From the NCBI GenBank assembly GCA_973895155.1, contig OZ316891.1:16247137-16311136 (forward strand): a stretch of DNA of 64,000 nucleotides. The letters run 5' to 3'. Position numbers and translations under genes: made by a program. Shown here in pieces: positions 4,482 to 57,206 of this stretch; positions within the stretch are counted from its first letter, which is position 1, and the number at the start of each line of letters is the position of its first letter. A model generated the notes under the pieces. The model searched no databases and was not told where the DNA came from. It saw only the letters and a program-made list of their open reading frames with translations. This DNA comes from Marsupella aquatica (lineage: Eukaryota > Plantae > Marchantiophyta).

Positions 4482-4488
4482 TATAAAA
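4482..4488 (+). promoter_or_regulatory. Putative TATA box for the unit-A ORF
   Basis: TATAAAA about 100 bp upstream of ATG 4590; conserved in copy 2 (TTTTATA at about 43735-43741). Confidence 0.45.
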
Positions 4489-4589
4489 GGGGAGCCAACC
4501 CTTTGTAGTGCACCAGTCCATCAGTCCACGCGCCAGCTTCAACCCTAGCTCTCTCGTTCGCTCTAAGTCGCCACTACTATCTCCTCTGA

Positions 4590-7216: not shown

Positions 7217-7950
7217 CAGCGGAGTAGGAATAGATTAGGATTAGGACAAGCTTAGTCAGGCTCTTGGGACAGGCACCTGCCTTAGGTACAGCAGCGCTGT
7301 CGTGCTATCCAGCCTGCGTAGATTAGGATCTTCTAATAAGACACAGTCGTTTTCCGGCCTGACTGTCAGCTTAGTTAGGACCTTAGTCAGCAAATCTTTG
7401 GCGAGAGGATACCCTGTCCCTCGTCCCTTAGTATTTAGTGCACCCCTCGGTAGAGGCAGGGGGGTTTTTAGTTGCAGAGTTGGGCGTCCGCGGTATGTGC
7501 GGGGAGTCCCGACCTCTGGGAATGAAAGAGTACCAAGGGGAGGGGGTAGGACTAAGCTCGCCGGGCGAGTGCGGAGCCGGGCTCCATTGTAGTGTGCACC
7601 CTCGGCCTTGAACCTGTTCATTCCGGGGCTGTCGGGTCAACTAAGTGTACGCATATGTTCCCTTTGTAGTAAATCCTTTCCCATCATTTTCCTTCGTGTA
7701 AATCGAGATTGTATGCATGTGCGCGTGTATGTGTGTGGGTTTCTCGTATATGGGTGGCAGCGCCAGGCCGAACGCACTACCCGAGACGTGCACAGGGTGC
7801 AGCCTGTGGGTAAGTGGTTGCGAGCACGGGTTGAGGACCTGTATCATCGAATCCGGATCGAAGGCGGACAGCACGAAGGCTTAGAAGCCCTTAAGCCGGG
7901 GTCGATCCTGCTATCGACTAAGGTACATTCCGGTGGCGGAACACAAACCA

Positions 7951-10090: not shown

Positions 10091-11537
10091 ATGTTGGAGA
10101 TTCACATATACCTCCCGAAAATGGACCCATACTACTGGGGCGATGGGGCCCTTCTAAATCAGCTGAAGAGGCTGGATTTGAGTCTTATCTTGCGTATTTT
10201 TAAATTAATTGTGCAGGCATCCGACTTGAACCAATATCATTTTTACTTAGATGAGCAGGAAGGGGTTATTTATATTCAGTGGGACAGATATGTTTGTTGG
10301 TGTAATCGGTTAGTTCTCCTTCTTCTGAAGACTGGTGCAGTGAGGCGTCTGATTCTCCACTGCTGCCAATAGAAGTGGAGCATTCAATGAGATCCAAGAT
10401 ATCATTGATGATCTCCCAGATCCTCTTGCCACAAAGTTCCTCATTGACAGTGGTGGGAAACTTCATTCCTATCGGAGCCGTGAACTACCTCCTAGACCTC
10501 TATGTAGGTTCTTCAAGATGATCTATAGCACTGGTCTGTGGACTAGTGTGCTAGCAAATGGGGAGGCGTGCACTTGCTACGTTAATGCTTGCTGTGACAT
10601 TCCGTCACGTAGGTATTCAGTAGCAGTAGTGGATCCCGCTACCAGAGCAGTGGACTTTCATTGGTTGTGGGCTTATGATCATACGGTCACCCATATCCCT
10701 CATTGGCCCAAGAAGCATCTATTGCAATTTGATGTAGCGCGGTTTGATACTGATATAGAGCCTGAAGATAGTGAGGATGAGATCTTAGTGTAGAGGTGTT
10801 GTAGTTCACCATCCTTCATTTTGAGACATTTTAAGACTGCACAATTTTGTACTTTTAAAGTCTTCACCTGTAGAGACTTTCATTCGAGTGGACATCATTT
10901 GCATTGTATTCCCTGATGTTGTGCCTGCCATTTTCATGTGCCATGCTATCGTTTTGTTGGCTTTGTCTGTATTTTTCCATGGGAAGTAATGATAAAACCA
11001 CAGACTTGGTAACTTGCGGTTTAGAATGCAAGCCAGTTTAAGAAGGCAAACCCGTGTTACTAAACCGTCAACCACAAGTATAGGTTTCTATGTCTCTGAA
11101 CTGAACTTCCTGTGTGAAGAGGTTGAAGTGATGTTGTCATTGCTGGATTGTTTGCAGGGAAGAATTGTCATGTTCTTATGTCATCTGTGCTTGTATATTG
11201 GGTCAACAATGAGTCAGGAGACCAAAAGCATTCGGGGTCCCTTAGTTACAAGGAGGGTTGGACCTTGGTTGACGCTAGGCAAAAGATGGTGGACCTGGAA
11301 CTTTGGGATTTTGAGTTCCAGTTTATTGATGTCAATTTCAATAGTCGAATTAAGGTTGCCTGGGAGAAAGGCAACCTCATTGAGGACTGTGGAGGGAAAC
11401 TCGTCGTTATCCCAAAGGTTGGAACTGCAGTACCAGCGGGAGTACTAGGCACTGGTGTCGACATTGGGAGTAGCAATGCTTCCAATCACTACAAAGAAAG
11501 AGACAATATACACCATAAGGTGTTTGAGTCTCAATAA
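10091..11537 (+). other. Short ORFs of unknown function, probably cargo of a truncated CACTG element
   Basis: Protein-like ORFs 10091-10372, 10518-10793 and 11148-11537 lie upstream of a CACTG-type terminus at 12127; no recognisable family motif. Confidence 0.25.
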
Positions 11538-11559
11538 TTTTAACACCGGTAACCCTGCT

Positions 11560-12127
11560 GTTATGGGACATGTTCTTTGTGATTGAAACAAAGTAGCTAA
11601 TATAGAGAATCTTTATGGTGTAATAGTGTCTCATGCCAAGGTGTAATATGTCATGAGAAGCAAGAAATATAAAGCAAGCGCCCCAAACACTATCTTAGTA
11701 TTTTTGATGTATTTTGTGAATGGTGTAACGTCTCCCATAATGGTGTAATATGTCCCGTTAAAAAAAATACAAGATTTTCACTTGTCCCAAACATCTTCCC
11801 ATAATAGATGTCATCATATAAACTATATATATGGCTAACTAGAGAGACCTGGCATGTTAATGACTTGCAAAATAGTTACTATACTTCATTGGTCCAAAGC
11901 TCTATCCTTATGTGCCTCTACCAGTTTGGTGGAGAGTGACACCATTTAAAATGTGACGGTACATATAAGGCTCTATTTACATTGTCTTGGCCTCTTTACA
12001 CCCCGCTTTACACATCCTGCATTGAAAGATAAACAAACAAATCAGACTTGTCATTCAACTGCACAGTCAACCTACAATTATGATTGGTAATTTAATTGTT
12101 TGGGACATTTGTGTATCTTTTCCAGTG
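11560..12127. mobile_element. Terminal region of a CACTG-type EnSpm element
   Basis: Ends TTTTCCAGTG (reverse complement CACTGGAAAA); short GGGACA/TGTCCC and GGTGTAATATGTC subterminal-like repeats. Confidence 0.45.
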
Positions 12128-12228
12128 GTGTTCTAGGGACATATGTCACATCACTTGTGTTCATGGAGGGTGTTTGAGAGACAATCAAATGGAGTGCAAG
12201 CTAGGGACACAAGCAAAAATGAAAGTAG

Positions 12229-12398
12229 TGTTGTAACCCAGGTTAAACCTACTTACCATAGTTCTACTTGCCTAACTAGAGTTCTACCTAACTCAGTTAG
12301 GATAACTGCCTCAGGGCAACGGCCTTCAAGCCGCATGTACTTATTCTTCTCCTTGGGAGTATACACGAGATCTTTTTCCATCTTGTCATGGTCCAACA
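12229..12398 (+). repeat. Copia 5' LTR
   Basis: TGTTGTAACC...GTCCAACA; one visible mismatch to the 3' LTR. Confidence 0.95.
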
Positions 12399-12412
12399 CG
12401 TTATCAGCACGA
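12399..12412 (+). promoter_or_regulatory. Bianca-type primer binding site
   Basis: CGTTATCAGCACGA directly after the LTR; a non-TGG PBS characteristic of Bianca elements. Confidence 0.8.
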
Positions 12413-12824
12413 GTAGTGCTCTGGTTTTTTTTTTCCTTAAATTTTTTTTTCCTCCGCCCTTCTACGAACCACGCTCACACTTGTCCGATCTTTAGTCACC
12501 GCGTGAAGGTTTTGCACGAAGCGTTGCGTCTCATGAACGTCCAATGCGCACGCAATACACTCGCCGCGTGAAGTTTTCAAGACTACGAACAGAGGCAAGG
12601 CGAGCGTGCAAGCAGCCGTGCACAACGCGATCGGACAATCAGACAAAGCGAGAGGCTGGAGTGCAGCAACCAACGCAAATTACAATCGACCACTCCAGCT
12701 AACACCTCCAATTACGAAAGCTCTTCACATTCCATTTATTCATGTCATCAATTTGTGAATTCATCAATCTAGACAAATTGTATTTCCGCCACTGAAACGC
12801 ATACTACATATAATCATAGTAATC

Positions 12825-15800
12825 ATGCCTCCGGCAGCCATGGAAAAGTTATATTTCCAGCCATTAAGTATTGATGGCGCCAACTATCTTTCTTGGCAAT
12901 TGGACATAGAGGCACACTTGACATCCAAAGACATTGCAGACACAATCACCTCCGACACAGGATCTACTTTACAGGAGCGAGCTCAAGCGCTGATCTTAAT
13001 TAGGCAACATTTGACTGAACCACTAAAGCTTCAATATCTAAACGAGCTCAACCCACGCCGATTGTGGGAAGCACTCCTTTCTAGATTTGACCATACCCGA
13101 ACAATCTTCCTCCCGGCGGCCCTACACGATTGGATCAATCTGAGGGTGCAAGATCACAAAACCATCGCAGCTTACAATAGTGAGCTGTTCCGCATTACCT
13201 CCCAACTCACAGTCTGTCAAAAACCGGTGAATGATCAGGAATAGATCGAAAAAACTCTTTCTACATTCCATTCTACGAACATGGTCATTTCAACACAATA
13301 CCAAAACATGAACTTTACCAAATACTCGGAGCTCATAGCCCATATGCTGCTTGCCGAAAAGCACCAGATACTTTTGCTGGAAAACACCAAGCAGAGGCCT
13401 TCGGGTACCTTACCACCCCAACCCCACACGGAGACCCATTTTAATAATCCACGCACTGACCCCGGAAGTTCCTACAGAGGGCGTGGCAACGGACGGGGTA
13501 GAAATACCTCTAGAGGCCGATGGGGCAATTTTAGGAGTGACGGTCGAGGCCAATTTTGCGCATCAGGCAGGGGCCGCGGCCGTTCACGAAACACCTACAA
13601 TAGCAATACCTGGAAACAGCCACAGCAAGTCAGATCAAATCCTCGCAGCCACCCACAAAAACCAGAAGAAGCCATGACCTGTTACAGATGTGGAACGAAA
13701 GGTCATGTCCAGAAACAATGTAGAGCACCTGCACATCTGGTCGCGCTCTATAAAGCCAGTATCGGCGAAGGCGCACGAGAATCACATGGGGCATTTCTTG
13801 ATTCCACTGAGATAAGACCAGAAATACACTTAGCTCCTATTTCAGATGCACATAATCCATTAGATGATCCTACTTGTTGCATAGTCGACAGTGGGACTTC
13901 CCACTCCATCCTCAGGGAGTGCAAACATTTCAAATACATTGATCCATCCGATAGAAGTGTCACGACTATCCTAGGCAACCATCAATTAGAAGAGGGAAAT
14001 GGCCCTGCGATGGTAATCTTACCACAGAAAACAACCATACACATACGCTCTGCAATCTATGCCCCCCGAGCCACAAGAAACTTACTAAGTTTCAAGGATA
14101 TCCGAGAGAACGGATTCCACATCCAGACAAACACTATTAGTGGCCAAGAGGTGTTGAATATACTAGAGACCACTGCATCGGGAACTACGATCAAAGAAAC
14201 ATTAAAGGCGTTCCCATTAGGCTTTTATATAACAAAAATAGACAATTACCACGTAATATCCCAACTGATTAGCACCACAGAACTATGGCATCGACGTCTC
14301 GGCCACCCAGGCCTACGAATGTTCCAGAGGATCCTCAAAGATTCTCGAGGCATCCCCGCCTCAGTGCACCCAGCCTCATTGAAAGAACCATGCTTACCTT
14401 ACTCGCAAGGGAAGCTAGTCCTTCGCCCATCCCCAACAAAGACTGACAAAAGGATACCCAAGTTCCTAGAAAGAATTCATGCAGACGTATGTGGACTGGT
14501 GGACCCCCCCAGTGGCCCCTTCCGATTCTTTCTGGCCATAGTAGATGCCTCCTCGAAATGGTCTCAAATTTCACTCCTTTCCACCCGAAATTTAGTATTC
14601 TCCAGACTCCTTGCCCATATACTTAAACTTAAGACACAGTTCCCGGAGCATCCCATTAGAACTCTTCGAGTAGATAACGCTGGTGAATTTACGTCAAAAA
14701 CATTCAAAGATTTTTGCATGACTGCTGGAATTGACTTAGAGTACCCAGTCCCCTACGTTCACTTTCAAAACGGGATGGCCGAATCATTGATTAAGCGTAT
14801 ACAAACCGTAGCGAGGCCACTCCTCATGCAGACCAACCTTCCACAAACAGCCTGGGGACACGCAGTCCTTCACGCAACAACTCTACTACAATATCGCCCC
14901 TCCGCATTTAACGATGCATCTCCTCATAGTTTAGCCTTCGGATCCAATCCCAACTTATCACACTTTCGCACCTTTGGCTGCGAAGTCCTCGTTCCGATCA
15001 TGGGTCCCAAATGAACCAAACTTGGTCCATAACGCCAGAAAGGCATTTATGTTGGTTTGGACTCACCGTCCATCATACGATATCTCGACCCGACCACGAC
15101 AGATCTTTATAAGGCACGAATGGCAGATTGCCATTTCTATGAGTCGGTATTCCCTAAACTGGGAACCACACAAAACCTCGAGAATACGAACAACCAACAA
15201 TTAAAATGGCAGATTGACTCCAAATTTTGGAATGACCCTCGGACCCCACTAGCGGATCGCGAGGTACAAAGGATCCTCCACCTTACCAAGGTACTTGGAG
15301 ACCTCCCGGATTCCTTCGCGGATGTAGCCCAGGTCACCCGATCGCACGTACCAGCCGCCAATACCCCTTCGAGAATTGAGACCGATGGACAGCCATCAGC
15401 CGAGGTAGTCCCAAGGCAGAAATGAGGCAGGCCACTCGGTTCCACTGACAAACGCCCGCGCCAAAGAAAACCCACCATTCCTGCAGTCAATAATGCCATA
15501 CTCCAGCCACCATCATTAGAACAAGGAGAGGAAATCTCCATACATTATAATAAAACCGGACACATCTGGGATCGATCTACTTTAAAGATGGACGATAGAT
15601 TCGCTTTCCAAATCTCAAAAGACATCATAGCGGACTTACCCGATCCCAGAACAATTGCAGAAGCCCAGAAACAAGAAGATTGGGAACATTGGGAGAGAGC
15701 CATCAAATCTGAGCTAGACTCACTGATCTCCCGACACGTCTTCGGACCAATCACTCGAGCCCCTCCACAGACACACCTTACGGGATATAAGTGGGTGTTC

Positions 15801-17391
15801 GTAAAGAAACGAGATTCCAAAGGGACAATTGTGAGATACAAGGCCCGATTAGTGGCCAGGGGATTTACACAAATTCCCGGCAAAGACTATGACCTCACCT
15901 ATTCTCCAGTCATGGATGCATTACGTACCGGTATTTAACTGCATTCGCACTCCACCATCAATTATCCATGCATCAAATGGATATAGTCATAGCTTATCTC
16001 TACGGCACGTTAGATAAAACGATACACATGGAAGCCCCACCAGAATTGATATCTAGAGTACATTATCATAGTCAGGGGGAGAATAACACAGAAAATGTCA
16101 GCCAGAACAACGACTACTCATTCAGGCATACTGATCATGCCATACTACAGAAGACTTCAAAAGCAATTGCATTCATTCAGCAATCTGCACACCCCGCCAC
16201 GGGCGCACTTCCTGCTAAGACAAAATTTGCTGTACAAGTTTTACGTTCTCTGTATGGCCTCAAGCAAAGTGGCCGGACCTGGTACTACAAATTCAAGGAT
16301 GAATGCTAGCTATGGGTTTCAAGAACAGCGAGATAGCTCCCTGCGTGTTTATCAAACGCGAGGGCAGTGAACTCATAATCGTCGCTATATATGTTGACGA
16401 TCTTAATCTGTTTGGAACCGCTAAGATTATGCTAGAAACGATACACATACTCAAACGTGTTTTCGAAATGCGAGACATGGGGCAAACTACTTTTTGCCTT
16501 GGCCTACAGTTTGAGCATCTCCCGAGTGGAATACTACTCCACCAGACCACGTACGTCAAGAAAATGCTCCAACAATTCCACATGTCGACAAGCAAAGCAG
16601 TAAGATCCCCAATGGACCTACGGTCGTTGGACAAAGAAAAGGATATCTTTTGCAAAAGAGAGGAAATAGAACCACTTCTTGGTTCAGAGAAACCTTACCT
16701 GTCAGCCATAGGGGCGCTCATGTTTGTTGCCAACCAAACCCGCCCAGACATAGCCTTCGCAGTCAATCTACTCGCCAGGCACAGTTCACAACCGACTATT
16801 CGGCATTGGAATGGAATCAAACAGATCTTCAAATACCTCCATGGTACATCTGATCTGGGCCTCTTTTACCCCCGACAATCTCGCATCACACTAACCGGGT
16901 TTGCCGATGTAGGATATTTGTCAGACCCTGCAGACGCAAAATCACAAACGGGATACATCTTTCTCACAGGAAACACTGCAATCTCTTGGAAGAGCACAAA
17001 GCAGACATTAACGACGACGTCATCCAACCATTCTGAAATCATAGCACTGTATGAAGCGAGTCGTGAGTGCATTTGGTTAAGGAATGTAATCAACCATATT
17101 GCCGAATGCACAGGAACGAATACACTAACTGCGCCTACTGTCATCTTTGAAGACAATCGGCCTTGTGTCGAACAGATAGCAGCAGGTTTCATCAAAGGCG
17201 ACAAAACAAAGCACATTGCACCGAAATTTTTCTTTGCACATGAACAAAATGGACACCAAATCGATGTGCGATGGATTTCGAGTGCAGAGAACTCAGCTGA
17301 TCTACTCACCAAGGCCCTACCACCTGCTATGCATCAGAAATTAACCTTCTCCATTGGAATGCGCAGCCTAAAAGTTTTGTTGCAGCCCTGA
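12825..17391 (+). pseudogene. Copia gag-pol (gag, CCHC knuckle, PR, IN, RT, RNase H), disrupted
   Basis: CYRCGTKGHVQKQC, IVDSGTSH, LWHRRLGHPG, RVDNAGEF, YKARLVARGF, SLYGLKQSGR, IYVDD, FEDN. Stops at about 13242, 15012, 15030 and 15423, plus frameshifts near 15930 and 16305. Confidence 0.95.
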
Positions 17392-17936
17392 TATTCATCG
17401 ACCCCACGTTCCAGGGGGAGCACATCACCTGGAGAGTCTACGTAGCAACATGCACGCAACGTCCGAAAAAGCCACGCTCACGGGCTCGACCAAACGCTGT
17501 GCGACCCACCATCTCATGACCATCCGAAGTATGGCCCACCATCTCCACGAGCCTCGAGCGAATGCGGCCCACCACGACTAACTTTAGGGCTTACGATGCG
17601 GTTTCCATACGACTACTCACCACTAAAATGACACGACTTTACTCACGATACCGTCTCTATACACACATGTTACGGCATACACACCCTTAGTACCCCTGTT
17701 TATTCAGGACATAATTCTTTTTAGGATTCTGATTAGTCTACAACTGTTTTTGGAACATGGATGGTGATACTCTTTCCTCCCATTGATGGGGAGGTTTTAG
17801 GGAGGTCACATCCTATTCCCTAACTATATCATGATGAGAAAATAAAATAGGAGAAAGCAGAAGAATACAGTAGAAACAAAGCAGGTTTTGAATGGGTACA
17901 ACTTTTTCCCTGGAAAATGTCATACCCAAGGGGGAG

Positions 17937-18106
17937 TGTTGTAACCCAGGTTAAACCTACTTACCATAGTTCTACTTGCCTAACTAGAGTTCTACCTAAC
18001 TCAGTTAGGATAACTGCCTCAGGGCAACGGCCTTCAAGCCGCATGTACTTATTCTTCTCCTTGGGAGTATACAAGAGATCTTTTTCCATCTTGTCATGGT
18101 CCAACA
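17937..18106 (+). repeat. Copia 3' LTR
   Basis: Preceded by PPT 17928-17936 and followed by TSD AGTAG. Confidence 0.95.
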
Positions 18107-19459
18107 AGTAGAACATTTTGAATGCATGAGCTATGGATATATCATTCAAAATTTTACTCACATGTAAATCTTAGTTGTCACCATCTCCCTCTGCTAGTGT
18201 ATCCACCATGTTTGCCAGATATGAAAACTTGGATTCAACCGGGATCACAAGAGACCAATCAGGCTCATTGTCAATTTGACAAAGGATACCTTGAGCCACA
18301 TGCTCAATCATGCAAAATGGCTCCTCTTGGAAAGACACAAGGTTGGCTGTATTTACCACTTTGAATGTAGATTCATCCCTTGTCCTCACTGCATTATGCG
18401 GTAGGTTTAATATTCCCCTAATTACATCCTCCTCCACCACAGGTCGATACCATTGAACTCTGAGTAGTTTAATTTCCACTAAATGACCATAGGTCAATAC
18501 AATGATGTCAGTTATGTATCCAACATAACTCAATGTATCACCAGTAGGATTTTGGTCCATCCTACTTGCAACGCTTTGCTGTGAAAATGTGTTAGTCACA
18601 ATAGAATCATAGGTTTCGTGTTTAGTCTCATCATATTCTCTTGTCCTGAAATGAGATCCACCTGCATTGATATGTTTGTATGACAGTGGATCACTGGTAA
18701 GTCCCCGACTGATTGCCCAAGATAAGTCATCAGCCATAATTGTTCCTCTTTGCTCTTCAATGCTGTCGAGAAACCATATGTCAAACGATGGCATTGATTG
18801 CAAAGCAGGAGGGAATCGTGCACATCTATTTTGTAAGCGCCATTGGCGTCGTCCCTCCATGTGCAATTCACGTGCATGCTCATATGCATCTCTCCACTTG
18901 CTCATACATGTGGTATTTTGAAGAACGTACATGTGGGCTTGCTTTCTTTCACGTTCAGACCGAAAGGTATAGACTGAACCAACTCCTTGCAGCACCACAA
19001 CATTTTTACATAGACGAGTTTCATGCCAAGAGTGGGTTGCTCCACTGGTTGGCCTATCACCAATAGAAGCTACACAGGAGTTATAGTAAAAAACTGATTC
19101 CCTCAGGAGATGCCCTTATGCTATACTAGCCTCCGGATGTGCTCTATTTTGCACATGTTGCTTCAACCTACCCATAAATCTTTCCCATGGATACATCCAT
19201 CTAGGAGAAAATGGGCCATGCATTCTGATCTCTTGGACCAAATGGACTACCAGATGAGTTTGAATTACAAAAAATGATGGCGGAAACTCTTTCTCCATCA
19301 AGCACAAAGCTGTAGTAACATCCACCTCCAATCCATCAATGTCTGCCAAAGATATTTGCTTGGCACAAAGTCTCCTGTCATGGGAACCAGTCAAGCCTAC
19401 TAATTAATTAATTAACAGTCACGAACAAAACAAGCCTCTCAATGTACGTACTCTACGTT

Positions 19460-19731
19460 TGTCAATAATATATAGATCTGTGCAATGTAGCTAGAACTAA
19501 TTAAATATGGAAACAATAAGTTCATGAGATAAAGCACCACAGCATCAAGTGAAATATATAATCAATTGTTTCTACAAAATAGATACTCCCTAGCCTCTGT
19601 CAATAATGTATAGATCTGTGCAAAGTAGCCAGAGCTAATTAAATATGGAAACAATAAGTTCGCGATATAAAGCACCACAGCATCAAGTGAAATACATAAT
19701 CAATTATTGTTTCTACAAAATAGATATTCCC
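19460..19731. repeat. Tandem duplication of about 138 bp in a transposase intron
   Basis: GTCAATAAT..AGATCTGTGCAA..AAATAGATA occurs at about 19460-19590 and 19599-19731. Confidence 0.8.
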
Positions 19732-20968
19732 GTGTCTTGAGGAGTTAGACAGTATAAAAGTACAAGAACCTGAAAACTCCACAAAATTTGTATATGGCTT
19801 GACGAACTAATGGAGTTAAAAACCCCGTATAGCTATTGGAAAACCATGATGAAGCAGGCAATGGTAGTCATGAGACTTGAGCCCTCTTGGCGTGTTAGTT
19901 GCAAAAGAATACTTAAACCCTGCCCCATAATATGTTGGAAATCTGATTGAGGATAGTCGTCTCATGAATATTTTCTTCTCTTAAGAGTTTAATATCCAAG
20001 GGGCCTGTTGGAGGTCAGGAACACCAGGAATGCACCAAGAAGCTGGTTGGACATTGTATGCCTCACAATTCAACCGGATAGCACGCCCATCCTTGCCCTC
20101 TGTCCCCATTATAGTTTGCAACAAATTTTTGGATACATTGGCTTCAATATGCATTGGATCCATCAAATGAGGTTTCTTCAGATCCTGCAGCATTAAGCGC
20201 ATTTAGTCAACTAAGCATTTCAAATTTGGGGGTGTACTATAAATTATGTTAATGAAAAATCATCACAGAACCTTCGATCAGAAAGATATATAGGAAATTG
20301 CATTTTTTTAAAGGTTTCATAATAAATTTAGAATATATACTCTACTACGTACAGAGTAGTCCAAATTCTGCCGTGCAAATCACACACACCTTCCAATATG
20401 TGAGTTGGTACCATATAGCAAGTCTCTTCATCCCTGACTGTTTTTGTGTTATATCACCATTTTCAACCTCTTCCCACCTATTTAACCAATCATCCCCATC
20501 CGGCCATATTGGAGCTGATTCTTCTTCGATCTTGCCAAACCAATGGTCTGTATCATATCTTATATAATGTCCCATTGGTAATGAACGTCGATGGCGTCCA
20601 TACAGTGTTTTGGACAGCCCAACCTCCCACTTTGAATCTAGGTCATCATGGCACATGGGACATCCATGTAGGCCCGTTGTTGTTAATCCTGAACAGTACC
20701 CACAGCCTGCCCATGCATTGACATATTAAATACATTTCATGCAAAAGTCTAGTATGGTAGACCATTCACAAAAAATGCCGAAAAAACTCTGAGACAACAA
20801 TATAATATAACATTGCACTTTATCCACCGACGTATTCTTACCAGGCCAATCATGCATTGTGCAGAATAACATAGCATGCAGGGTAAACCTTTGGTCCATG
20901 TTCACTGGAATTGAGCCATCCATTGCCATCACCCCTACCCACAATAGCTTTAGCTCGTCGACTAGAGG

Positions 20969-21307
20969 GAGGTGTTTACAAAAGACAGCAAACAGGAAAC
21001 AGGATTTAATAACAGAAACTGGTAACAGGAAAAAAACTGGTAACAGGAAAATGGGTGGAATTTTTTTTTGAATTTTTTTTTTTTCGGTCGACCAGTTTTT
21101 TTCGCTAGCGCCCAGCGCTGCTAATAGTAGCGCCCAAAGCTAGCCAAAAATGTTGCATTGTTAATTTTTTTTGGAAATAACATGTTTTAGGAGATATTTT
21201 TAAATTGTCATTTTTCCTGGTAACAGTGATTTTTTCCTGGTAACAGCATATTAAAAACAGGAAAAAAAATTCTTGTTTACCTGTTTCCTGTCTCCGTCAC
21301 TATACCC
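20969..21307. mobile_element. Non-autonomous MULE (MITE-size, 339 bp)
   Basis: 9-bp TSD GACTAGAGG (20960-20968, 21308-21316). Removing it restores the CACTA peptide LDVYFQPLV-DELKLLW. Ends GAGGTGTTTACA and (reverse complement) GGGTATAGTGAC; GGTAACAG repeats; two central palindromes. Confidence 0.9.
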
Positions 21308-22941
21308 GACTAGAGGTTGGAAGTAAACATCCAAAAATTCTCTAGGGATCTGGCTTGGACTTGTATGTATTCATGACATCATCAAATTCATCCTTAGTAG
21401 AAAAATCAGATCACAAAGGTGTTTTGTAATTATTCAATGATGAAGAACAGTTAAGAATAATACCTCACCTGGCAGTATCATGACCATCCAAGAATATCCA
21501 TGCTTGGTGGCCAACCAAGGTGCAAGTTGAAGGTGTTGATGATGACAGGCCATATGCTGTAAGGGGTGGAATGTCCCTTCCCTGCAAACGGGCTGACTCC
21601 ATCCATGGCAAGTCCCAATAGTAAGGAGCGAGGGTCAGACATTTTATCAGAAAATTTTGTCCTTGCATGTTCCAAGCTGTCCCATCCACGGGACTAGTCA
21701 GAATCCCATCTGTTTGATTACTGCTATGCCATTGGTACAATTTTGCAAACTCAGGGTTTTGAAATGCCAATTTAAGTCGTGGAATCAATGGAAAATATCT
21801 CATCACCTGAAATACAAACATGCACATGAGTATCAACCATGAGCTATAACTAATTAGGAAGCTCTAGGACAATTCGACATTCATGTCTTAGAGATGATTT
21901 ACACCATCAACTTCACCACAATGACTATTGAATATCTCATGATCCTTAAAAGTTTAGACACACATGAATATTGATCCTGTACGTACACAGACATACGAGC
22001 TATAGCGTGTTAGTAAATTTATACCAGTTCACCTCATTTTCTAAATATTGCTTAAAACAGAGCCTAATAAATAAATGAGTGAAGGTATCTGAAGAAATGA
22101 ATAACTGGATGACGAATACTGACCTGACGAGGGGTTTTGCTGTTAGGATAATATCTTGATTCTCCGCATTCTGGACAACTGGTTATATTGGCGTGAAGTT
22201 CACGGTATAGAATGTGATGATTTGAGCAAGCATGGATCAATTGGTAATCAAGACCAAGTGTAGATATCATTTTTTTTGCTGCATATGATGAAGTTGGAGC
22301 CAGGTTTCCCGGTGGTAAGCTTTTCCCTGCCAACTTGTACAAATCGTTCATTGCAGATTCTGAGATGTTATGGGTAGTCTTGATTTTACTCATCAATAGA
22401 CAATATTTCCCCTTTGACATTGGAGCACCCTCATACAAAGGATCAGATAAATCTTGGTAAGGTAAATGGTTTGGTGGAAAATCTTGAGGGATTCTGTCAT
22501 CATCCCGGTCATCATCAACAAACTCATTTTCCAGTATGTCATCTACATTCAAGTCGGGGTTCAGAGGTGGTTCATCTTCCATTGTATGCTCATCAGGCAA
22601 TTGGAGTTCATCAAATTCATCCAAGTCCAAAGCGTATATGTCTCTGGTTACATGAAGATGTTCTTCAGAACCTTCTGAAATTCCAGGTTGTTGAGAATGA
22701 GCATTTGCAGGGATTGCAATAGGTCGGGCCATAGCTTCAAATTGAAGGCCACCAACAATCTACAGAATGATCCCACGTACATAAAATGGTGAATTGACAT
22801 TTAGTATCCAATTTACCAGCAACCTTAACAATGTAATACATTGAAATAAAAATGATCGCAAAGATTTACCAATAAGCTGTACAACAAGGTCGAATGGATA
22901 CTAGACAACTGCGACTTAAATACAGAGAATGTTGGTTCTTT

Positions 22942-23490
22942 TTATTTAACAAATGGATATAATGCAAAAAGTTCCTCTCCAGCAAGAATGGTTTTATACG
23001 CCATTGTCCAAATATGAGGAAGATCAATTGTCTTATGAAGACGAGTATTACGTTCCCATGACTCCTCCCACTCTACATTAATCATTCCTGGCATCTGAAT
23101 GCCACTGTTGATGTATCCGGCAAGATTCCAGGTATATGCTGGTGTGCCATCAATATATTGGGAACTTCTATAATGTGAAGTACTATGGGCATTGGCCATC
23201 AGAGTGTATGCTTTCATTGAGGGCCAAGTATGCACAAGCATCTCCCAGTTAGCCATTGGATACATTGGTCCAGCATAGGGGAAAAGGGACACATTCTGAC
23301 ATAAACCAGAACGGGTTTCCCGAACAACTATGTCTTCGGAAGCAAATAACCCGAAACCTGCTTGCACCCCAAGGGTGGACGGCTTAACCTCCCATTTTCT
23401 ACCCCAACAAGTAAATATCTCCTGAATGGGGATGGGTTGAGTATAACCATAGTGACGTGGATTATACCCTTCAACATAGACCGTACATGT
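22942..23490 (-). CDS. SET-domain (lysine methyltransferase-like) coding segment inside the CACTA transposase gene
   Basis: WEVKPSTLGVQAGFGLFASEDI, FPYAG, YIDG..NLAGYINS..NVEW, AYKTILAGEELFALY give the SET motifs in correct order. Frame is open upstream of the listed ORF to a TAG near 23500. Confidence 0.8.
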   Translation of the reverse strand, partial: TCTVYVEGYNPRHYGYTQPIPIQEIFTCWGRKWEVKPSTLGVQAGFGLFASEDIVVRETRSGLCQNVSLFPYAGPMYPMANWEMLVHTWPSMKAYTLMANAHSTSHYRSSQYIDGTPAYTWNLAGYINSGIQMPGMINVEWEESWERNTRLHKTIDLPHIWTMAYKTILAGEELFALYPFVK

Positions 23491-26289
23491 GAACTACATA
23501 GTGAACTTCCTATCCCTGGCAACGACAATGTTGTTATAATGACTCCATTTTCTTGGACAACATAATCTCCAAGTGTATTCTGATTGTGAAGCCCATTAAT
23601 ATGACCAGGAAGTGGCACTGCCTCTTCTAATGATTCCTCAACATCGGAGCCCTACACAAGAGGGTAAACCACATACAGCTTAAGGTGCCAAGAATAAGAC
23701 GTTTGCTTCCTATTCTAGTGTTAAATCTATTTATCATTCAAACAGAGTATAACAACCACAACAGATTAATTTATCTACAGTCAATGGAAAATTAAAGTAA
23801 CAAAATTGATTAAATATATAATGCATCTTACCCCTTCTGTGGTAAATACTCCATCTCTTAGCATGTGAGTATCTCTTATATGTTTCTCGCGAGTACTGGC
23901 GCCTTTGCAGGTCATACACCAACAGAGCCATCTAGCACTTGTATTTCCCCCAGGCCATGGGTCACCAGGCCGTGGTTGCCTTCTGTAGGATAAGTCCTCT
24001 CTTGACGAAGCCATCACAACAAAGTCTTAACCTGATCTCAATGCTGCAAGGTACGTAGATAGGAGTCAACAATTGACAAGCTTTGGAATGTGCCAATTAC
24101 AACCTGCAGTCAAGAAATATCTGAGAGGTAAAAAAAGGTTTTCTATTGAACTTAATTACTCTAGATTGACCTTCAGCAAGACCTTGGAGAGTCACCTAGC
24201 TTGGAGACCTTCATTTGTCATTTCAATCCTAACTGTGCTCCGCTTTATTCACATATATCTTGTCTTGTGCAAGACATTCTCCTTTGTCCATTCGATTATG
24301 ATTGGGAACCCTTTTCAAACTAATTGCATCAATTAACAAAAGGGCTGCATGAAAATTTTCTTTTTAACATGACAGACTACGTACGTGGACCTGACTAGAG
24401 ATTTGCTGTGCTCTTAATTTGACTACTACGTAAACTGTGGAGATCTATTCCTTGGACACTACTATATCAACTAGGATCCCAATAATTTGAGGATGAGTTA
24501 CATCTCTATCTAGTCCATCTCAAGTCACTCCGTCTTCCCTCATTACCTGCTAGAACAATTAATGTACTTGACCTCAGACCAAATTGCACCACAATCAGAG
24601 CTCTAACCTGATTCTAACATTGTCTAGCTAGTATATTAGATGATACCGACAAATAATTAACAGTACCCAAGACCTAAACTATTCATAATCTGGAGCAACA
24701 CAAAGGCGGAGATCCAATTATTGATAGACGATGCCCAACCCAGGTACAAAACCTTCGAGCGCGTCATACCACAATCAAGGACTAAGATTAATTAATAAAC
24801 AATCCACATCACACTATAGCTAGCAAGCAAAGTGAAGGAGATTGGAGCTTGGTTGGGTTTAGCCACCATTCCAATGAAGAAGCAAAGGACCAGGTTATTC
24901 CTCAATTCTCACCTGGCCTCTACGTCTATGTTTTAGGTGAGAATTCTCCCCCAATTTCTCCAACAAAGAAAAAGAGTTGATCTGTTGAGCTTACTCTGGA
25001 TTGAACATCAATCTTGTCTTGTACACTGCCGCCGTCTCAAAGAACACATTGTGGTTGCTACTGGGTACTATGCAGCGGGGCTTTGAGGATCTCTTGCATT
25101 GGATTCCCCAATCTACTTTGGCCGTCTCTCTTTGGAGTATGGTCGTAGGTGTACTCCGTCCCAACAATGTAAACATTGTCCTTTGGGATTCCCGGGGCCC
25201 ACTCTGTCTCTCGGGTTTTATCTTCGAGTAAAAAAACAAGTTAAGGATGTGACCTGCTCTCGGGACCTGCTGTCCCAAAGGTAACACTTGTCTAGTTTCG
25301 TTGGGCCCACTCTGTATCTCGGATTATTCTCTTTGAGTAAATAATTGAGAATGAGTCGTAGGATATTGAATATATTCCAAAAGTTAAATAGCTGAATATA
25401 TCCCAAAGATGTAAGCATTGTCCCAAAGTTAACTTTTTGGACCAAGTGTACGTGTGACCGCCAAATAATTCCATGTACCGCTAGATTAGAGCCGTCTTTT
25501 TTCCCTCCCAATAAAATCCATATCAGATCAGGCTTTGTACCTGCATTTCTTTGTTTGAAATTAACCCTTGGAATTCACTGAAAGGTTGCGTGTTTGATGG
25601 TGAAAGAGTGTTGTGGTGTTGGATTACTTTTTGTCACTGAAAGAGATCTAGCATCAATGGTCAAAGAGTGGTGCTCGGCAGTGATGCAATGTCGCCTCAT
25701 TGAGAAAAGAAGTTGCCTCTAGAGAGATATAGCTTCATTTGAATGTCGAGGAGGTGACAACGGCCAAGGATAAACTGAGAAATTTGGGACAGAGCTCTTC
25801 GGGGAGCTCTCTCACTTGGTGCGACAACTCCTGCGACAATTTCAATCATCATGAGGACCCGCGGGAGGAAGAAACTAAGATCTGGACCAACCAAAGATCC
25901 CGTGAAAGGTATTCCGTCGATCGAAGCCTGGCAGTTGAATGTGCTTAGATTAGCTTTGCCTTTGTTCAACTAGTTTAATTTGATTAAGTGTGATAGACTT
26001 AGGTATACATACTGTAACTGGTTTCTAGGTTCACTTGGATGATTCAATAGTCGATATACAGCCTTGGCTTCCATAGTTTTTCATTGAAAGATAGACATCA
26101 AATTGCAATGTTCAGTACGTCTATTGGTGTGGATGAGTACGTGCAACACTAATTCCTAGGCTTTATAGATGATTTGATGGTTGATCCCTCAAACTTCTGT
26201 TTTGCTAGATTCTTTGTAATATCTATCACCAGCCTTTGCGAGATTGATTTTACTAAAAGTGTAGTCTTCCAACATTTTTGGGATATAAT

Positions 26290-26945
26290 TATTAGACATA
26301 GTTCTTGGAGATAGGGAAATTCCATTCATCTCGGGAGCCATTATTGATCTGATCTAGCTTTTCAAAAGGTCCGCAGTAAAACATTCCCGACTATGCAAGG
26401 GGATTAATTTTTTGTAGTAGTAGATTTAATAGATAATGAACTGGCCGGGGTTATTTCACCTACGTACGTAACCTTTGCAGTGCAATTCCTAACATTGCAT
26501 ATCTTTTCCAATATCTTTCTTAAGGAATGTGTTTTTTATTGGTGAAATCTCCATGATTGCTGTGATTTTTGTCTGGTCCTTTAGACATAGTTTTTGGAGA
26601 CAGGGAAATTCCATTCATATCCGGAAGCATTCTTGATCTGATCTAGCTTCTCAAAAGGTCTGTAAAACATTCCCGACAATACAAGGGGATTAATTTTCTG
26701 TAGTAGACTTAGAGTTAATAGATAATGAACTGGCGGGGGTTATTTCACCTATGTACGTAACCTTTGCAGTGCAATTTTTGACATTGTTCCAATATCTTTC
26801 TTAAGGAATGTGTTTTTTATTGGACAGTGGAATCTCCATGATTGCTGTGATTTTTGTATAGTCTCTTTTCCAATATCTTTCTTAAGGAATGTGTTTTTTA
26901 TTGGATAGTGGAATCTCCATGATTGCTGTGATTTTGTCTGGTCTG
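26290..26945. repeat. Local tandem duplications (about 290-bp unit plus shorter repeats) upstream of or intronic to the TnpA-like gene
   Basis: TTAGACATAGTT..GGGAAATTCCATTCAT block occurs twice; CCAATATCTTTCTTAAGGAATGTGTTTTTTATTGG occurs three times. Confidence 0.8.
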
Positions 26946-27535
26946 TGACAGATTATTCAGCAACATGCTATAATTGACAAGATATCACCGTAGTTATATT
27001 CATAACTCAAGTATATGTGATTCTTGTGAATCTCTCTATATAGACTCTACTTCAATCTACACTAATCTTAGACCGTATCTAGTCAACTGATCAATTAAAC
27101 TAACAATATATATCTGAAATTTGGGAGTCAGATCCCACCCAAGTCTATTGTGCCAATCACCATCAAAGTAGATATACTAGTCAATAGCACCTGAGAAAAG
27201 ACAGCCCGGCTCATGCTACAATCTTTCTAGTTGGAATCTAGAATAGTAGGTGATGTTATTGGTCAAATGAATTGTTTTACAACTTTGTGAAATACAAAGG
27301 GATCACTTAAGACAGCAGCCACATAAAGGCTGCAAATAAATAATTATTTCTATTATCTTCTACTAGACTTGCATTAGACTTTGCTGCAGGTCCGACACCT
27401 GGTTCTCAAAGCTCTACTACAGCTCAAGACCACCTACGACATGTCTCACTCTGAACAAAACTTGGCATCTGTGATTGTGTTGTCAGTTTCTTTATTAAGA
27501 TCTTTACTATATTTGTTGTTTGGCTAACAGGGGCT

Positions 27536-30232
27536 ATGAGAGAAGATTCAAGTTCACAAGTATTGCCTCTACACTCGCCTCTACATGGATCAAAGAAGAG
27601 AAGATCACAGCCCTTCGACAATTTGTGTAGGGGAGAAAGATTGGTTCCAGCCAAGAGTTCAGAAGCTATCAATGTAAGGACAGGCCATGAATTGCAAGAT
27701 CCTCATGAAGATGGCCCACACCAAGAATCACAAGATCCTTATGAAGATGAATTTGATGATAGTGATCATCAACGTAGCCTTGGGACCTGTCCATTGGAAG
27801 TGGAGTCAACACATGCTGACTTGTCCTTGCCTGATGACACACCAAGGATTGATATGAGTAAAGTATCAATTTTTGAGTGTTTGAGAATTGTGCCAGATTC
27901 GTGTGAGCCTCATCCTTCTACTGAGTTTTCAGGTGCAGCACAACCTGATCCTGGACCTAATCAGACTTCTCCTCTTTCACCTGTGAAAAGAATCATGTCA
28001 ATCTTATTGGGTAGTGTTCCACCTCCAATCCCTTCCATTAATGAAACCATTCAGTCTAGTGAACTAGATGTACAGCACCCTGGCTTGAAGAGAAAAGTGG
28101 ACTTGGTTTACTCAAGGGCCTCAAAAAAATCTGCACAAGGTTTTGGAGTCCTGGATTCTGATTTCTCATGTCCATCTTTCTCAACTCAGTAAATTGAAAA
28201 TGCCCATGCAAATGTAGCAAATACTATGGAGATTTTGGATGATATAGAGGAGTGTCCAATCAGCCAACAAGAGGAACCTTCATCTTTGAGAACTCAGACC
28301 AGTACACCCTCAAGTACACCAATTTTACAGGCTGATGTTACTCACAGGATACAGGCTAGGAGGAAGTTGTCAGCTCAAGCAAGAGTTCAACCAGCAAGAA
28401 AAACCAGAGGGGGTCCAAGCTCAAGGACCAACACAGCTGAGGTTGCAGTCAAGGAATCTGAGCCCAGGGGACCATCTACTTTGACACTTTCTGATGTTGA
28501 GAGTCAGAGGATTGCAGTTGAAAGGCCTAGTTCAGAGCTTCCCATAGTTGGGGTGGAAAGAAGAAGACTGAAGAAGGGAGGACGAAACACTATTGCAGCA
28601 GTTCAGAATGGGTCAAGTAAGGAAGGTCAGGCAAGGGATGGTGAAGATGTGGACCAGTCCATTTCTCAGTTGAAGAGAAAAGATGACTTGATATACTCAA
28701 GGGTCTCAAGAAAACCTGCACACGGTTTTGGAGACCTTGATTCTGATTTCTCTTGTCCATCTTTTTCAACTCAAGAAATTGAAAATGCAACAAATAATAT
28801 GGAGATCTTGGATGACATAGAGGAGTGCCCTGTCAGTTAAGAAGAGGAACTAGAATCTGCATCTGTGAGAACTAGGTTCAGGCATGAAGCAGAGCTGGTT
28901 GGTGCACCCATTTCCACAAGGGATGTTGGAAGAAGACGGGCCAGGAGGGAGCAGCCAAGTCAAACAACAATTCAGCCAAGAAGAAAAAATAAGGGGCAAC
29001 AGAGCTCACAGATCAATACGGCTGAGGTTGAGGTCAGAGTTTTGGAGCACAGGAGACCTTTGAGTTTAGCACCTCATGATGTTGAGAGAGAAGGGACCAT
29101 GGAACCTGAAAGACCTAGTGTGAAGCTTCCTATACCTGGGGCTCAAATCAGGAGAACTGAACAGAGAAGAAGAGCCACTGTCACAGCACACCATATTGGA
29201 CTTGAAGGAGGTCAAACAAGCTCTGCTGTAGGGACACCTCAACGGCAAGATGTGGAACTTGTACAGCCCCCACAATCAGCAAGAGTGAGGCATTGTGACT
29301 TGCCTCTTTCAGAATTGATGAGAAAAAGAGCATATGAAAGATTGAGGAAGAGAGCACAAAGAGAGAAAATCAAGGCAGCAAAACAAATTGGAGGTGCATC
29401 TGAAAGTGTTTTGATGAAGCCCAAACTTGAATTACGTGAAGGGGTCCCAATTGGTGACTGTCATGGAACAGTAGTAAGAGAATTATCTCTTATTACCAAG
29501 TTGGAGGTAATGTGTTTCACTCCCATACCTGATATTGCAGATGATGTGTATCAGCAGATTTATACAAAGCTTCATGAGAAATATGAGAATGGAAAGCTTC
29601 TTTCATTCAAATGGACAGTGAGAAATGCAAATTTATTGATTGGCTATCGAAGAACTCGAACCAGAAAAGTTGTGCAAGTTTACTTGGAGAATCTACCTCC
29701 AAACTCCCAGAATCCACCACCCCCTCCTGGAGTATTTCTTCTTGAGTTTGAGCATTTTGCAAAACAGCTTTGTAATGAAGAGTTTGCAAAAACAAGGGAT
29801 AGGTTTACAACTATGTCTCATGCAATGGTGGAAAAAAGAGGATGTGGAAATCCTATGGGCAGGGGAGGAGTTGCAAGAGCAATGGCAATTCATGTAAGTT
29901 TTCCATTAAGAATGACTCCAGCATATGTTTATTGCATTACAATCTATGGCAATGAAACTAGTATATAGATTATGTGCACAGCAAAATTAGTGTACAGATT
30001 ATGTGCACAATTTTGTGAATTACTTCTCATTGAAGCTATAAAGGATTTATTGGGTTCAGACTTAACATTCTTTCAGGTTGTTGTTTCCAATCAGATTCTG
30101 AAGAAGGGAGATGTTCCTACCATTGAGGAGGTGGGTGCTTGGAAGGATGCATCCTACAAAAAATACACTCTCCAAAAAAGAGGTCCTACAACTCTTGAGA
30201 TGGATAATGTTGTACAAGGTGAAGATAGCTAG
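27536..30232 (+). pseudogene. CACTA TnpA-like (Transposase_24/Ptta-like) gene with duplicated low-complexity N-terminus
   Basis: GVPIG, PPPPGV..EFEHF, NPMGRGG, PTIEEV; intron about 29894-30076; in-frame stops at 28190 and 28838. Confidence 0.65.
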
Positions 30233-30439
30233 TATATATATGAGACAAGATGAAATGATCTTGGGCTGAACCAGATGTTTCATTCTCACCTTGACATACT
30301 TAGCAATTACTTTTGCTATATAGTATCAGGTCTACCAGAAAGTACCAACTTGATCTAAATTGCATTGTAATAACTCTGTTGTTTTCAATTTGAATAACTT
30401 TTTGAATGGTAACATCATAAGTTTGTTTTCTTTAGATAA

Positions 30440-31428
30440 ATATGATATTGTCCCTACAACATCATGGAAAACGGTGTGCAAAGTGTCCCCTAAAACCGTC
30501 TCATGTCATGTTGTCCATGAACACCTTCTACTAGTCCCCTTAACACCACATCATTCACAAGCTTTTGTCCTACAAACACCATATATATCAATCTATGTCC
30601 CCTAAAACCATCTCAACCAGTCCACCAACACCTTCTACTAGTCTGCTTACAGGTCCGCTTAACATCATGTCCGTTCAATAATGTTTGTCCAACATACACC
30701 ATATCTATGTCCCATAAAACCATCTAGTTGACTGTCTGCAAACACCATACCTATGTCCCTTAACATCATGTCTATTTATCAATTGATGTCCACAAACACC
30801 TTGTACCAGTCTTGTAACATCATGTCAATTCAATCAATTTTGTCCTCTCTACACCATATTTATGTCCTTGAAAACCATATAAGCTGGTTTGCAAAACTTT
30901 GTATGAGTCCTTTAACATCATCTCTATTTATCAATTGATGTCCTTTATACACCATATATATGTCCCCTAAAACCATCTTTGCTAGTCCGCAAACACCTTC
31001 TATGAGTCTCAATTGTATATTCATCAATTTTAGTCCTTCGTACACCATATTTATGCCCCCTAAAACTGTCTCATTAAGTCCATAAACACCTTCCATGTGT
31101 CCCTTTAACATCTTATTTTTGTAAGGAGCTTTTGTCTCGTATACATCATATTCTTGTATATATGTATATTAAGTGTCCTGAAAACACCATAATGTATGTT
31201 TCTAAAATACAGTGTACAATAAATAATACGTAAAAAAGTAATGATGTAAGCTTGTCTCTCCAAGAGAATAGAGGTCCCTCACATCATACATTTTACATGA
31301 GACTGAAAGGTGCTAATGTGACACTTTTTTCCCCAATGTGTTTGCGCCAGTGGTGGGGACAAAGTCCAATATACACCATAGTCAAAGGTGTTGGGACAAA
31401 GGTGTATTTTGTCCATATCCTAGTAGTG
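30440..31428. repeat. CACTA subterminal repeat array and right terminus
   Basis: Many TGTCCCCTAAAACCATCT / ACACCATAT / TTAACATCAT units, then CCTAGTAGTG; an inner CCAGTG end at 31352. Confidence 0.75.
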
Positions 31429-31571
31429 AATGGTACATCTCAAACTTGCAGCCAGGGTGATGACCTTGACACCCAACGTGTTGAGGGTAGTGACTGGCTA
31501 GGAGATGAGCTCCCGTTGCCCAATCCTTCCCTTGTTGACACTCCTTGACCAGTTGAGGAGCAGGTGCTGAA

Positions 31572-32347: not shown

Positions 32348-33009
32348 GGGTATGATAGCCATGACAGAAAACAGAAAACCTGTTACCAGGAAATTTTTTG
32401 CTGTTAACAGTCAAATATAACTGTTACCAGTAAGCGATTCCCTGTTACCAGTTTTGCATCAACCATAGCCCTTTGGTCCGAATGAAAAACTACGCTAATC
32501 ACAAAATTTTTCTGAAGTGAATTAGGTTTAAAACAAACAATTATTGTGTGCCATCCGATGGATGAAGAGTACTAGCAATCCTCCCTTGCAACAACATTTT
32601 GATCTGGAAGATAACTGAACACGGTATGGGGACTATACTCAATGAAACATTCATTCAAATATCACTATTCGTCCAAGCTAAAAAGTGAACCTTAGGGTGG
32701 GACCCACCACAGAACAAGTGAAGAGTAGTGTCCAAATGAACTCAATCAAAATGATTTCACTTAAATGGACCGAGTACCATGACAAACAAATGACAAAACA
32801 CCTCCTAACGATTTATTTCAGAATAATTGAATAAACGTGGCTTGAAAGATAAAACATAATGATATCAACTTACACATTTTAAATAAAACATAGTGTAATG
32901 CTTACACTACACGCGTACATAATAAAAGTAGCGCCCGACGCTAACCAAAAAATACTGAATAAAACAAGTAACATATCCATTGGGTAAAGACAAAATAGTG
33001 ACTATCCGT

Positions 33010-36000: not shown

Positions 36001-36756
36001 CCTTTGGAAGTACTCGCAGGACTTGTGACATTCAATGAACCCCATACAGGTAACCTTACCGAATTGCCAAAGATTTTTTGGCTGAACGTTCGCGGTAGTT
36101 GGAAATATGCGTGTCCAAATGTAGCAATCTTTGGCACGGTCCATGTCCCTAAGCCTAGAGCCTTTAGAGAGCATCTTGTCAATGGGTGGCAATTCAAGCA
36201 CGACGTTCCCGTTGTACTTAGTTGGCAGACACGAAACTTGCTCATGTCTGAAATCACCCGTTGATATGAACCTCGATAACTCGCTATGACCAGTGGATTT
36301 GAGTAACGTATCCATTGCACTCCGCCGTTACACAACCTCCAACTGGTTAGAGCTTCCTGGAGTCTCACCTTTAATGACAGCATGTTGCGGGACTTTCATT
36401 TTCAACGTAGGACTTGGAGTGTGATCCCCATCTTCACTAGAAGAAATCTCGACAACATCAAATGGAACTTGGGGGACAATGGACGGTCCTTCATGTTGTT
36501 TTACTCGAAGTGAGTACAAAATCCCCGCGTATAGATGCCAAAACCGTTCACCATCATCCACATTGAATGTTGCTGCATCTTCGATGTCATCACTGGTTTT
36601 GAGCTCTCGAACAATGGCCTCAATATCATTCATCCTCAAATCAAATCTCCCGCAAAGGTATCTCTCCCGGACCTGCTTGTACGTGTCTTCCACAGGGACG
36701 GGGATGGTCACAATATCCCCAATCCCGAATCAGGATAGAACGATGGACCGAGACAT
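33010..36756 (-). pseudogene. MULE transposase (WRKY/GCM1-like Zn domain, DDE core, SWIM finger)
   Basis: CHYC..CPAR..HIGEHNHP; VSFDV; GFMADNAQAGWNAV..VF..AFHFYQS; C-terminal YFVQI..PACSCEDF..PCKHLYWV read at 33155-33270. Multiple stops and frameshifts. Confidence 0.85.
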
Positions 36757-57149: not shown

Positions 57150-57206
57150 TCTCCTAGTAAATCCATCACCTCAGCTCCCTCCTTAGAGAGAGCGACTAGA
57201 GCATCC

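Follow-up and report, generated by a model that had tools for sequence, protein, structure and literature searches.

A SET-domain exon within the transposase gene of a CACTA/EnSpm transposon of the liverwort Marsupella aquatica

We analysed a 64,000-nucleotide (nt) stretch of the genome of the liverwort Marsupella aquatica (contig OZ316891.1 of assembly GCA_973895155.1, positions 16,247,137 to 16,311,136; the whole stretch is called the window below). It contains a CACTA/EnSpm DNA transposon whose transposase gene harbours an exon encoding a SET domain, located between the first exon, which encodes a putative zinc finger, and the remaining transposase exons. The SET exon is a real feature of this element, and represents an intron-nested arrangement in a land plant of a known type of transposon cargo. 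Its conservation across distantly related sequences indicates that it is very probably functional cargo rather than a chance acquisition.

Exon layout and the predicted SET domain

The part of the element that carries the SET exon is organised as follows:

23832..24014, minus strand: exon 1 (ATG at 24014; 183 nt, 61 codons; phase-0 donor GTAAGA at 23831)
23652..23831, minus strand: intron separating exon 1 from the SET exon (180 nt, 70% AT, GT...AG ends; predicted from its ends and composition)
22942..23651, minus strand: SET exon, comprising linker, pre-SET segment and SET domain (710 nt; stop TAA at 22944-22942)
23463..23476, minus strand: one-base frameshift 5' of the SET core, where tblastn matches of the relatives P0006, P0007 and P0084 change frame
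22957..23358, minus strand: SET core (GxG at 23358-23350, Tyr73 at 23277, Asn129 of INSG at 23109, Tyr179 of EELFALY at 22959)
22760..22941, minus strand: spacer from the SET stop to the transposase acceptor (182 nt, AT-rich)
18171..22759, minus strand: remaining Tnp2 transposase exons (PF02992, E = 2.7e-9; PF13960, E = 5e-27; both above cut-off)

The exon 1 donor, the SET acceptor (TGTGTAG/GGC at 23652/23651) and the transposase acceptor (TCTGTAG/ATT at 22760/22759) are all in phase 0. An earlier note, made from the letters of this DNA alone, had placed SET motifs on the same strand as the transposase, in the interval from exon 1 to the transposase exon that follows, with the donor at 23831, the SET acceptor at 23652, the stop at 22942 and the transposase acceptor at 22760. 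These coordinates are correct, and the motifs GFG, FPYAG, GYINSG and GEELFALY are found there; the reading of INSG in place of the canonical NHS, and of an intact ELxxxY, is likewise borne out. The acceptor, the stop and the motifs are real, and what the note overlooked is that the frame is interrupted by a single-base shift near 23466. The length of the SET exon is 3n+2. The frame entered at its acceptor runs into a stop at 23328, and it is a second frame (22942-23493) that contains the SET motifs. The close natural relatives P0006, P0007 and P0084 match the first frame up to 23466 and the second from 23475, the match of P0084 beginning at 23648, which is the second codon of the SET exon. Since these relatives follow the first frame and then the SET frame, we interpret the region as one exon with a one-base frameshift, and the copy in the window is therefore unable to encode the finger-SET protein. 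An alternative acceptor at 23494, which would skip the frameshift, was ruled out, as homology with the relatives extends 5' of 23494 up to the exon start.

Exon 1 encodes a CxCxxC...H motif and matches the transposase-associated domain PF13963 below the cut-off (E = 0.027). With a finger profile built from relatives only, it ranks first among the 1532 frames of the window (E = 0.001; the next has E = 1.5). Its predicted model has a strand-strand-helix arrangement and no significant fold match (best E 0.87, best Z 2.0), with many C2H2 fingers among the weak rows. We refer to it as a zinc finger because of this motif, the weak Pfam matches and the predicted strand-strand-helix.

The Pfam SET profile is covered completely by a match to residues 46-179 of the 183-residue frame at 22945-23493, with a score of 20.6 bits (E = 6e-4) that lies below the cut-off of 22.4. 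The predicted structure of the domain has a predicted local distance difference test score (pLDDT) of 89.5, and Foldseek returned 332 matches in the PDB at E<=0.001, SET domains accounting for 40 of 40 among the matches listed. A wide structural search gave SET8 as the best match (Z 12.7, root-mean-square deviation 2.2 over 124 residues), with Set1, PR domains, EZH2 and SET7/9 tied with it (Z 12.7 to 12.0) at an identity of about 16-25%; because the top scores are tied, no named host subfamily (SET1, SET2, E(z), SUV39, SET8, PRDM) is ahead. The domain is thus confidently predicted to have the SET fold and fits none of the host subfamilies clearly. A single-sequence search of the PDB gave no match; a family-profile search gave LegAS4 as the best one (E = 2e-5), as did Foldseek. 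The assignment to SET made in the earlier note is upheld by the sub-threshold profile match together with the fold, and the outcome that the note had named as refuting it, no SET match, did not arise.

Relatives of the SET exon and conservation of the layout

A search of 1.84 billion protein representatives gave 80 matches at E<=0.001. We aligned the window protein with 50 of 84 search matches; the sequences omitted were P0050 and P0082, which on inspection are unrelated repeat proteins and were rejected as SET relatives, and otherwise mostly short or partial ones. Pfam SET was detected in 43 of the 51 aligned members at E<=0.05, no other Pfam domain in more than one of them, and a methylase domain in none. 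At a mean identity of 37%, Tyr78 and Asn139 are invariant in this alignment, position 73 is Tyr or Phe throughout (51/51), and Gly75 (49/51), Gly46 and Gly48 (48/51 each) and Glu174 (48/51) are nearly so. The cofactor-binding Asn129 and the catalytic Tyr179 are each kept in 44 members. The family thus has the features of the SET superfamily, namely GxG, YxG, the cofactor Asn and the Tyr of ELxxxY. The spacing of the catalytic Tyr and the stop, with a median of 7 in the 41 proteins (of 81) that have the full motif as against 10 in intron-like DNA, does not discriminate between a C-terminus and read-through.

A scan of metagenomes recovered 68 pattern matches representing 25 loci (L001-L025) of a single family, here called the L family, with 92-100% mutual identity (20 compared) and about 35% protein identity to the window. 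The order in this family is a CACTAC end, a divergent gene, the finger exon 1, a 117-nt intron, the SET exon, its stop, a 136-nt spacer and Tnp2. Counting only the copies that span a given site, GT at the donor is present in 16 of 16, AG at the SET acceptor in 17 of 19 and at the transposase acceptor in 13 of 14, and the SET stop in 16 of 16; all splice sites are in phase 0. Sixteen of the 25 loci run on into spacer or transposase DNA, six end at most 30 bases further on, and three are broken up by unrelated DNA inserted from elsewhere. The CACTAC end is shared by all four loci that are long enough, at three different flanks. The preservation of order, phases and stop in a distant, multi-copy family disproves a one-off capture, which the earlier note had named as a refuting outcome. 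We also observed SET exons split by later insertions, in L015 (L015:520-2463, a gypsy-type element) and in L020 and L021 (the same insertion).

At the protein level, seven of the 198 proteins collected are predicted to carry the finger and the SET domain in a single chain (six of these seven were seeds chosen by eye), and these natural proteins support the proposal of the earlier note that the SET product shares the transposase N-terminus. SET and Tnp2 domains occur together in two gene models of Riccia sorocarpa. Thirty proteins were looked up, and six carried a species name (Riccia sorocarpa three, Calypogeia fissa two, Ginkgo biloba one); further Riccia and Calypogeia gene models carry family members. 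In a SET tree of 59 rows the window protein groups with P0006-P0008 in a clade of its own that has full support. Members linked to a finger or a transposase are found in five separate branches and are no more clustered than expected by chance (167 of 500 shuffles were as low; context is known for a minority of rows). This pattern in the tree fits an ancestral association of finger or transposase with SET, without proving it. Two further groups of sequences were observed: a branch of this SET family made up of short proteins of about 190 amino acids with many variants (P0030, P0058, P0068 and P0118-P0129), which may sit in another type of element, and a seed-plant member with a Cys-rich N-terminus (P0074, Ginkgo biloba Gb_21150).

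The nearest Atlas clusters, as judged by language-model features, contain SET proteins of giant viruses, haptophytes and bacteria, which we regard as a lead on the origin of the domain. Relatives were absent from viral contigs, GTDB genomes and phage records in pattern scans that reach fairly close relatives only; given this reach, the scans neither support a viral or bacterial source of the domain nor argue against one.

Proposed function and competing explanations

In intact copies, exon 1 would have two in-phase partners, the SET exon and the transposase exon. Joining of exon 1 to the SET exon would give a protein of about 297 residues (finger, linker and SET domain) ending directly after the catalytic Tyr, and skipping of the SET exon would give the transposase; judging from splice signals and phases, the SET exon would be an alternative last exon with an early 3' end. 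Such a splice switch around a shared exon is probable, and it is likely that the SET protein is an active enzyme. The finger-SET protein is predicted to be a lysine methyltransferase that would mark histones on the element's own copies and so keep them expressed. Its recruitment to the element by the transposase or by the second element protein is a guess, made because a single finger is unlikely to read a DNA sequence alone.

This interpretation draws on published observations: Spm elements produce accessory regulators by alternative splicing, splitting transposase and regulator, and their TnpA counters silencing (as described in 10.64898/2026.08.24.746577), and liverwort transposons, as reported for bryophytes, carry trimethylated lysine 27 of histone H3 (H3K27me3; 10.1101/2022.10.24.513474). 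For an active enzyme, a histone target and an anti-silencing role have about an even chance. Taken as a whole, the interpretation that the element encodes a lysine methyltransferase that marks its own chromatin against silencing is the most likely of those considered, though a tentative one that we place a little short of even. A more extended version is rather doubtful: a one-gene switch in an old land-plant CACTA lineage (liverworts, mosses, perhaps seed plants), in which skipping of the exon would yield the transposase and its inclusion a histone methyltransferase guided by the finger. This enzyme would derive from the minimal SET domains of giant viruses and bacteria and not from those of the host, and would write a protective and possibly non-canonical mark on the element's copies.

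Several observations weigh against the main interpretation. The tied structural scores (Z 12.7-12.0) favour no histone-specific SET subfamily, the post-SET region is scant, and 49 of 51 members have Ser at the His position of the canonical NH(S/x)C, with His absent from the residue counts listed. The canonical motifs used for comparison are of the RFINHxCxPN type, as given in PMC3980110. The loss of this His is compatible with activity, because in PRDM9 the Asn alone of the NHS motif is required for cofactor binding, as described in PMC9861158, and because LegAS4, which reads N-F-S at this position, is reported to methylate lysine 14 of histone H3 (10.64898/2026.05.29.728679). The layout was read as DNA in two families only, and most of the 80 relatives, including that of Ginkgo, are without genomic context. 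Riccia gene models join the transposase from within the SET exon, at points differing between copies. The SET exon shows no sign of purifying selection in the L family, where crude substitution ratios for it (0.86 for singletons, 1.03 for shared changes) exceed those of the transposase control (0.72 and 0.56); these near-neutral ratios fit the decay of dead copies, yet lend no support to selection, and are uninformative since the copies are 92-100% identical, form a near star pattern and were counted crudely. The weakest step is the targeting of the enzyme to the element that encodes it.

The same structural observations bear on an explanation that is unlikely and still has to be taken seriously, namely that the finger-SET protein methylates a substrate other than histones (transposase, second element protein or a silencing factor of the host), or works with little catalysis as a binder of histone tails that directs insertion or excision. 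Many SET proteins methylate non-histone lysines. The lack of a histone-specific subfamily match, the family-wide loss of the NHS His and the proximity to giant-virus, haptophyte and bacterial SET proteins would all be consistent with this, whereas the retention of Asn129 and Tyr179 speaks against a dead enzyme and the best PDB profile match, LegAS4, is a histone H3 methyltransferase.

The predicted splice switch has to be weighed against two other ways of expressing the gene. Exon 1 could always join the SET exon, with the transposase starting at its own Met downstream on a dicistronic or a separate transcript. In both the window and L001 a Met occurs 8-10 codons after the start of the transposase exon, P0117 has a similar one, and the spacer GT sites at 22869, 22816 and 22780 could splice part of the 3' untranslated region to the transposase exon. 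The corresponding Met is missing near the exon start in P0021, P0046 and P0113, as expected for an internal transposase exon; the spacer, of 136-182 nt, is intron-like and ends in an AG that is kept in 13 of 14 copies and is in phase with the exon 1 donor; and exon 1 matches the transposase-associated domain in both the window and the L family. Two cistrons are improbable.

Still less probable is a single finger-SET-transposase fusion, a mobile counterpart of SETMAR, in which splicing from a site close to the 3' end of the SET exon would remove the stop. The models P0070, P0107, P0113 and P0117 are built in this way, and in the window an in-frame GT at 22950 follows shortly after the codon of the catalytic Tyr. 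However, that site is weak (TT/GTTAAA), L001 lacks any donor-like site scoring at least 6/8 close to where the exon ends, and all 16 copies that cover the stop retain it; the junctions of the Riccia models vary in position, P0117 thereby losing the catalytic Tyr, which looks like prediction noise. Long fused forms (882-2515 amino acids) were absent from 4943 candidates, which is weak evidence.

A functionless, neutrally captured host fragment of the Pack-CACTA type would agree with the pick-up of host DNA by CACTA elements (described in PMC8616336), with the frameshift in the window copy and with within-family ratios near 1, and is nonetheless very improbable and largely refuted already, given that families with about 35% identity keep the exon at one position and with unchanged phases, that motifs are conserved in 51 sequences at 37% mean identity, and that the best PDB chains have an identity of only 18-25%.

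The host element, its surroundings and related systems

The element that carries the SET exon and the features within it are the following:

11487..31428: whole CACTA/EnSpm element (CACTAC at both ends, imperfect terminal inverted repeats, AAT flanks; about 14 kb without the nested copia element)
11487..11516, plus strand: terminal inverted repeat on the side 3' of the transposase gene (target duplication AAT at 11484-11486)
31399..31428, minus strand: opposite terminal inverted repeat (target duplication AAT at 31429-31431)
27455..30232, plus strand: second element gene, divergent from the transposase (open reading frames)
12229..18106, plus strand: copia long terminal repeat retrotransposon nested near the element end (175-nt direct repeats 99% alike, AGTAG duplication, gag-pol open reading frames)

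The ends pair at 21 of 30 terminal bases as an imperfect inverted repeat. The CAC..GTG ends with terminal inverted repeats, the 3-bp target-site duplication (AAT) and the Tnp2 motifs place the element in CACTA/EnSpm, following the description of ends, duplication length and transposase motifs in PMC12730594. The transposase contains DGVSP, HDWPG, CPMC, HLMDPMH and YPWER, which we take to supply the D, D, C(2)C, H(3-4)H and E motifs of a Tnp2 transposase, the assignment of the acidic residues being presumptive. It carries frameshifts near 21678 and 21535, an insertion at about 20967-21315 and a premature stop at 19116-19118; with its SET exon frameshifted and its transposase broken, this copy of the element is dead. 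The insertion, of about 350 nt, has a flanking duplication of 9-10 bp and imperfect inverted ends, and we take it to be a Mutator-type miniature inverted-repeat transposable element; a related stretch of 35 nt is found in inverted orientation at 32399-32433. The second gene (27455-30232) gave no significant match in Pfam or NCBIfam and no similarity to one open reading frame of the corresponding gene in locus L011, and may be TnpA-like.

Outside the element, the window contains a number of other repeats. The segment 44529-48348 (plus strand), taken together with 33301-36400 (minus strand), contains open reading frames with weak similarity to amino-methyltransferases (PF01555, E = 0.0017; DpnA adenine methylase, E = 6e-4; NF010253, E = 4e-4) and has a DGNHR motif with a weak DGQHR match (E = 0.05), near unassigned minus-strand open reading frames; we take this motif to be ParB-like. 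A palindromic motif recurs about eight times between 32922 and 51785. The region is possibly a second large DNA transposon with putative DNA-methylase and ParB-like cargo, recalling Plavaka PAG2/PAG3. Inverted copies of a retrotransposon segment of about 4 kb, 96-98% alike, lie at 4124-8041 and 40269-44099, with long open reading frames of unassigned function beside gypsy-type pol frames. At 53421-59422 (minus strand) there is what we take to be an element of the long interspersed nuclear element type, with a presumed ORF1, endonuclease and reverse transcriptase, the last in a frame of 1049 codons. Tandem arrays occupy 39135-39660 and 60548-61928, with units of 13/20/27 nt and 18-19 nt.

Among known systems, the closest in cargo is PAG2 of Plavaka elements (EnSpm superfamily) in red algae, where SET is likewise carried by an EnSpm/CACTA element and has been proposed to modify chromatin; as described in 10.1101/2025.02.11.637652, it is a separate gene in which SET is fused to an adenine DNA methylase. 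The SET of the window is set apart by description, being an exon within the transposase gene of an element with CACTAC ends and a 3-bp target-site duplication, joined to the transposase finger, and none of the 51 aligned members has a methylase domain. HarbingerS and the SET-bearing MuDR of Phytophthora (Kojima and Jurka 2014, as cited in PMC12730594), and SET-bearing Helitrons (10.1101/2025.02.11.637652), are likewise DNA transposons with SET cargo, although these sources describe them as accessory genes in other superfamilies and hosts, unlike the exon studied here. The published accounts of SET cargo in oomycete, algal and red-algal elements, in the portions available, report no assay. We found no published description of a land-plant CACTA element with a SET exon in its transposase gene in a literature search with Repbase, Repbase Reports and preprint supplements outside its scope, and the accessible part of PMC11982613 has nothing on transposon-borne SET.

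In terms of gene organisation, En/Spm is of the same superfamily and, as reported, obtains a transposase (TnpD) and an anti-silencing factor (TnpA) from one gene by splicing; TnpA is a helix-turn-helix DNA binder that needs host demethylases, whereas the alternative product described here is predicted to be an enzyme and the element contains an additional gene in divergent orientation (10.64898/2026.08.24.746577). SETMAR resembles the window in having SET and transposase in one gene, and differs in that a host gene, now fixed, took up the transposase of a mariner element (PMC8616336), while here a mobile, multi-copy element carries a SET exon that ends in a stop. VANC of VANDAL elements (Mutator) is also an element-encoded counter to silencing (PMC8616336), as proposed here; VANC is no SET enzyme, and for the SET protein such a role is a prediction. 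Both VANC and TnpA are described as causing loss of DNA methylation, TnpA through host demethylases (PMC8616336, 10.64898/2026.08.24.746577). Minimal SET enzymes such as SET8, PR domains, LegAS4/RomA and giant-virus SET proteins share the fold and a non-canonical NHS, and differ in sequence (only 18-25% identity, top matches tied), so that no subfamily, substrate or donor is singled out.

The window adds a distant branch to this SET family, together with a copy that retains both ends and the target duplication. Some of the genes annotated as 'SET domain-containing' in bryophyte genomes are transposon exons. If the proposed function is correct, the transposon would encode a lysine methyltransferase of its own and so write chromatin marks directly, not by recruiting host enzymes. 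The occurrence of such elements in liverworts makes the question testable, as chromatin work is practical there and the transposons of these plants carry H3K27me3.

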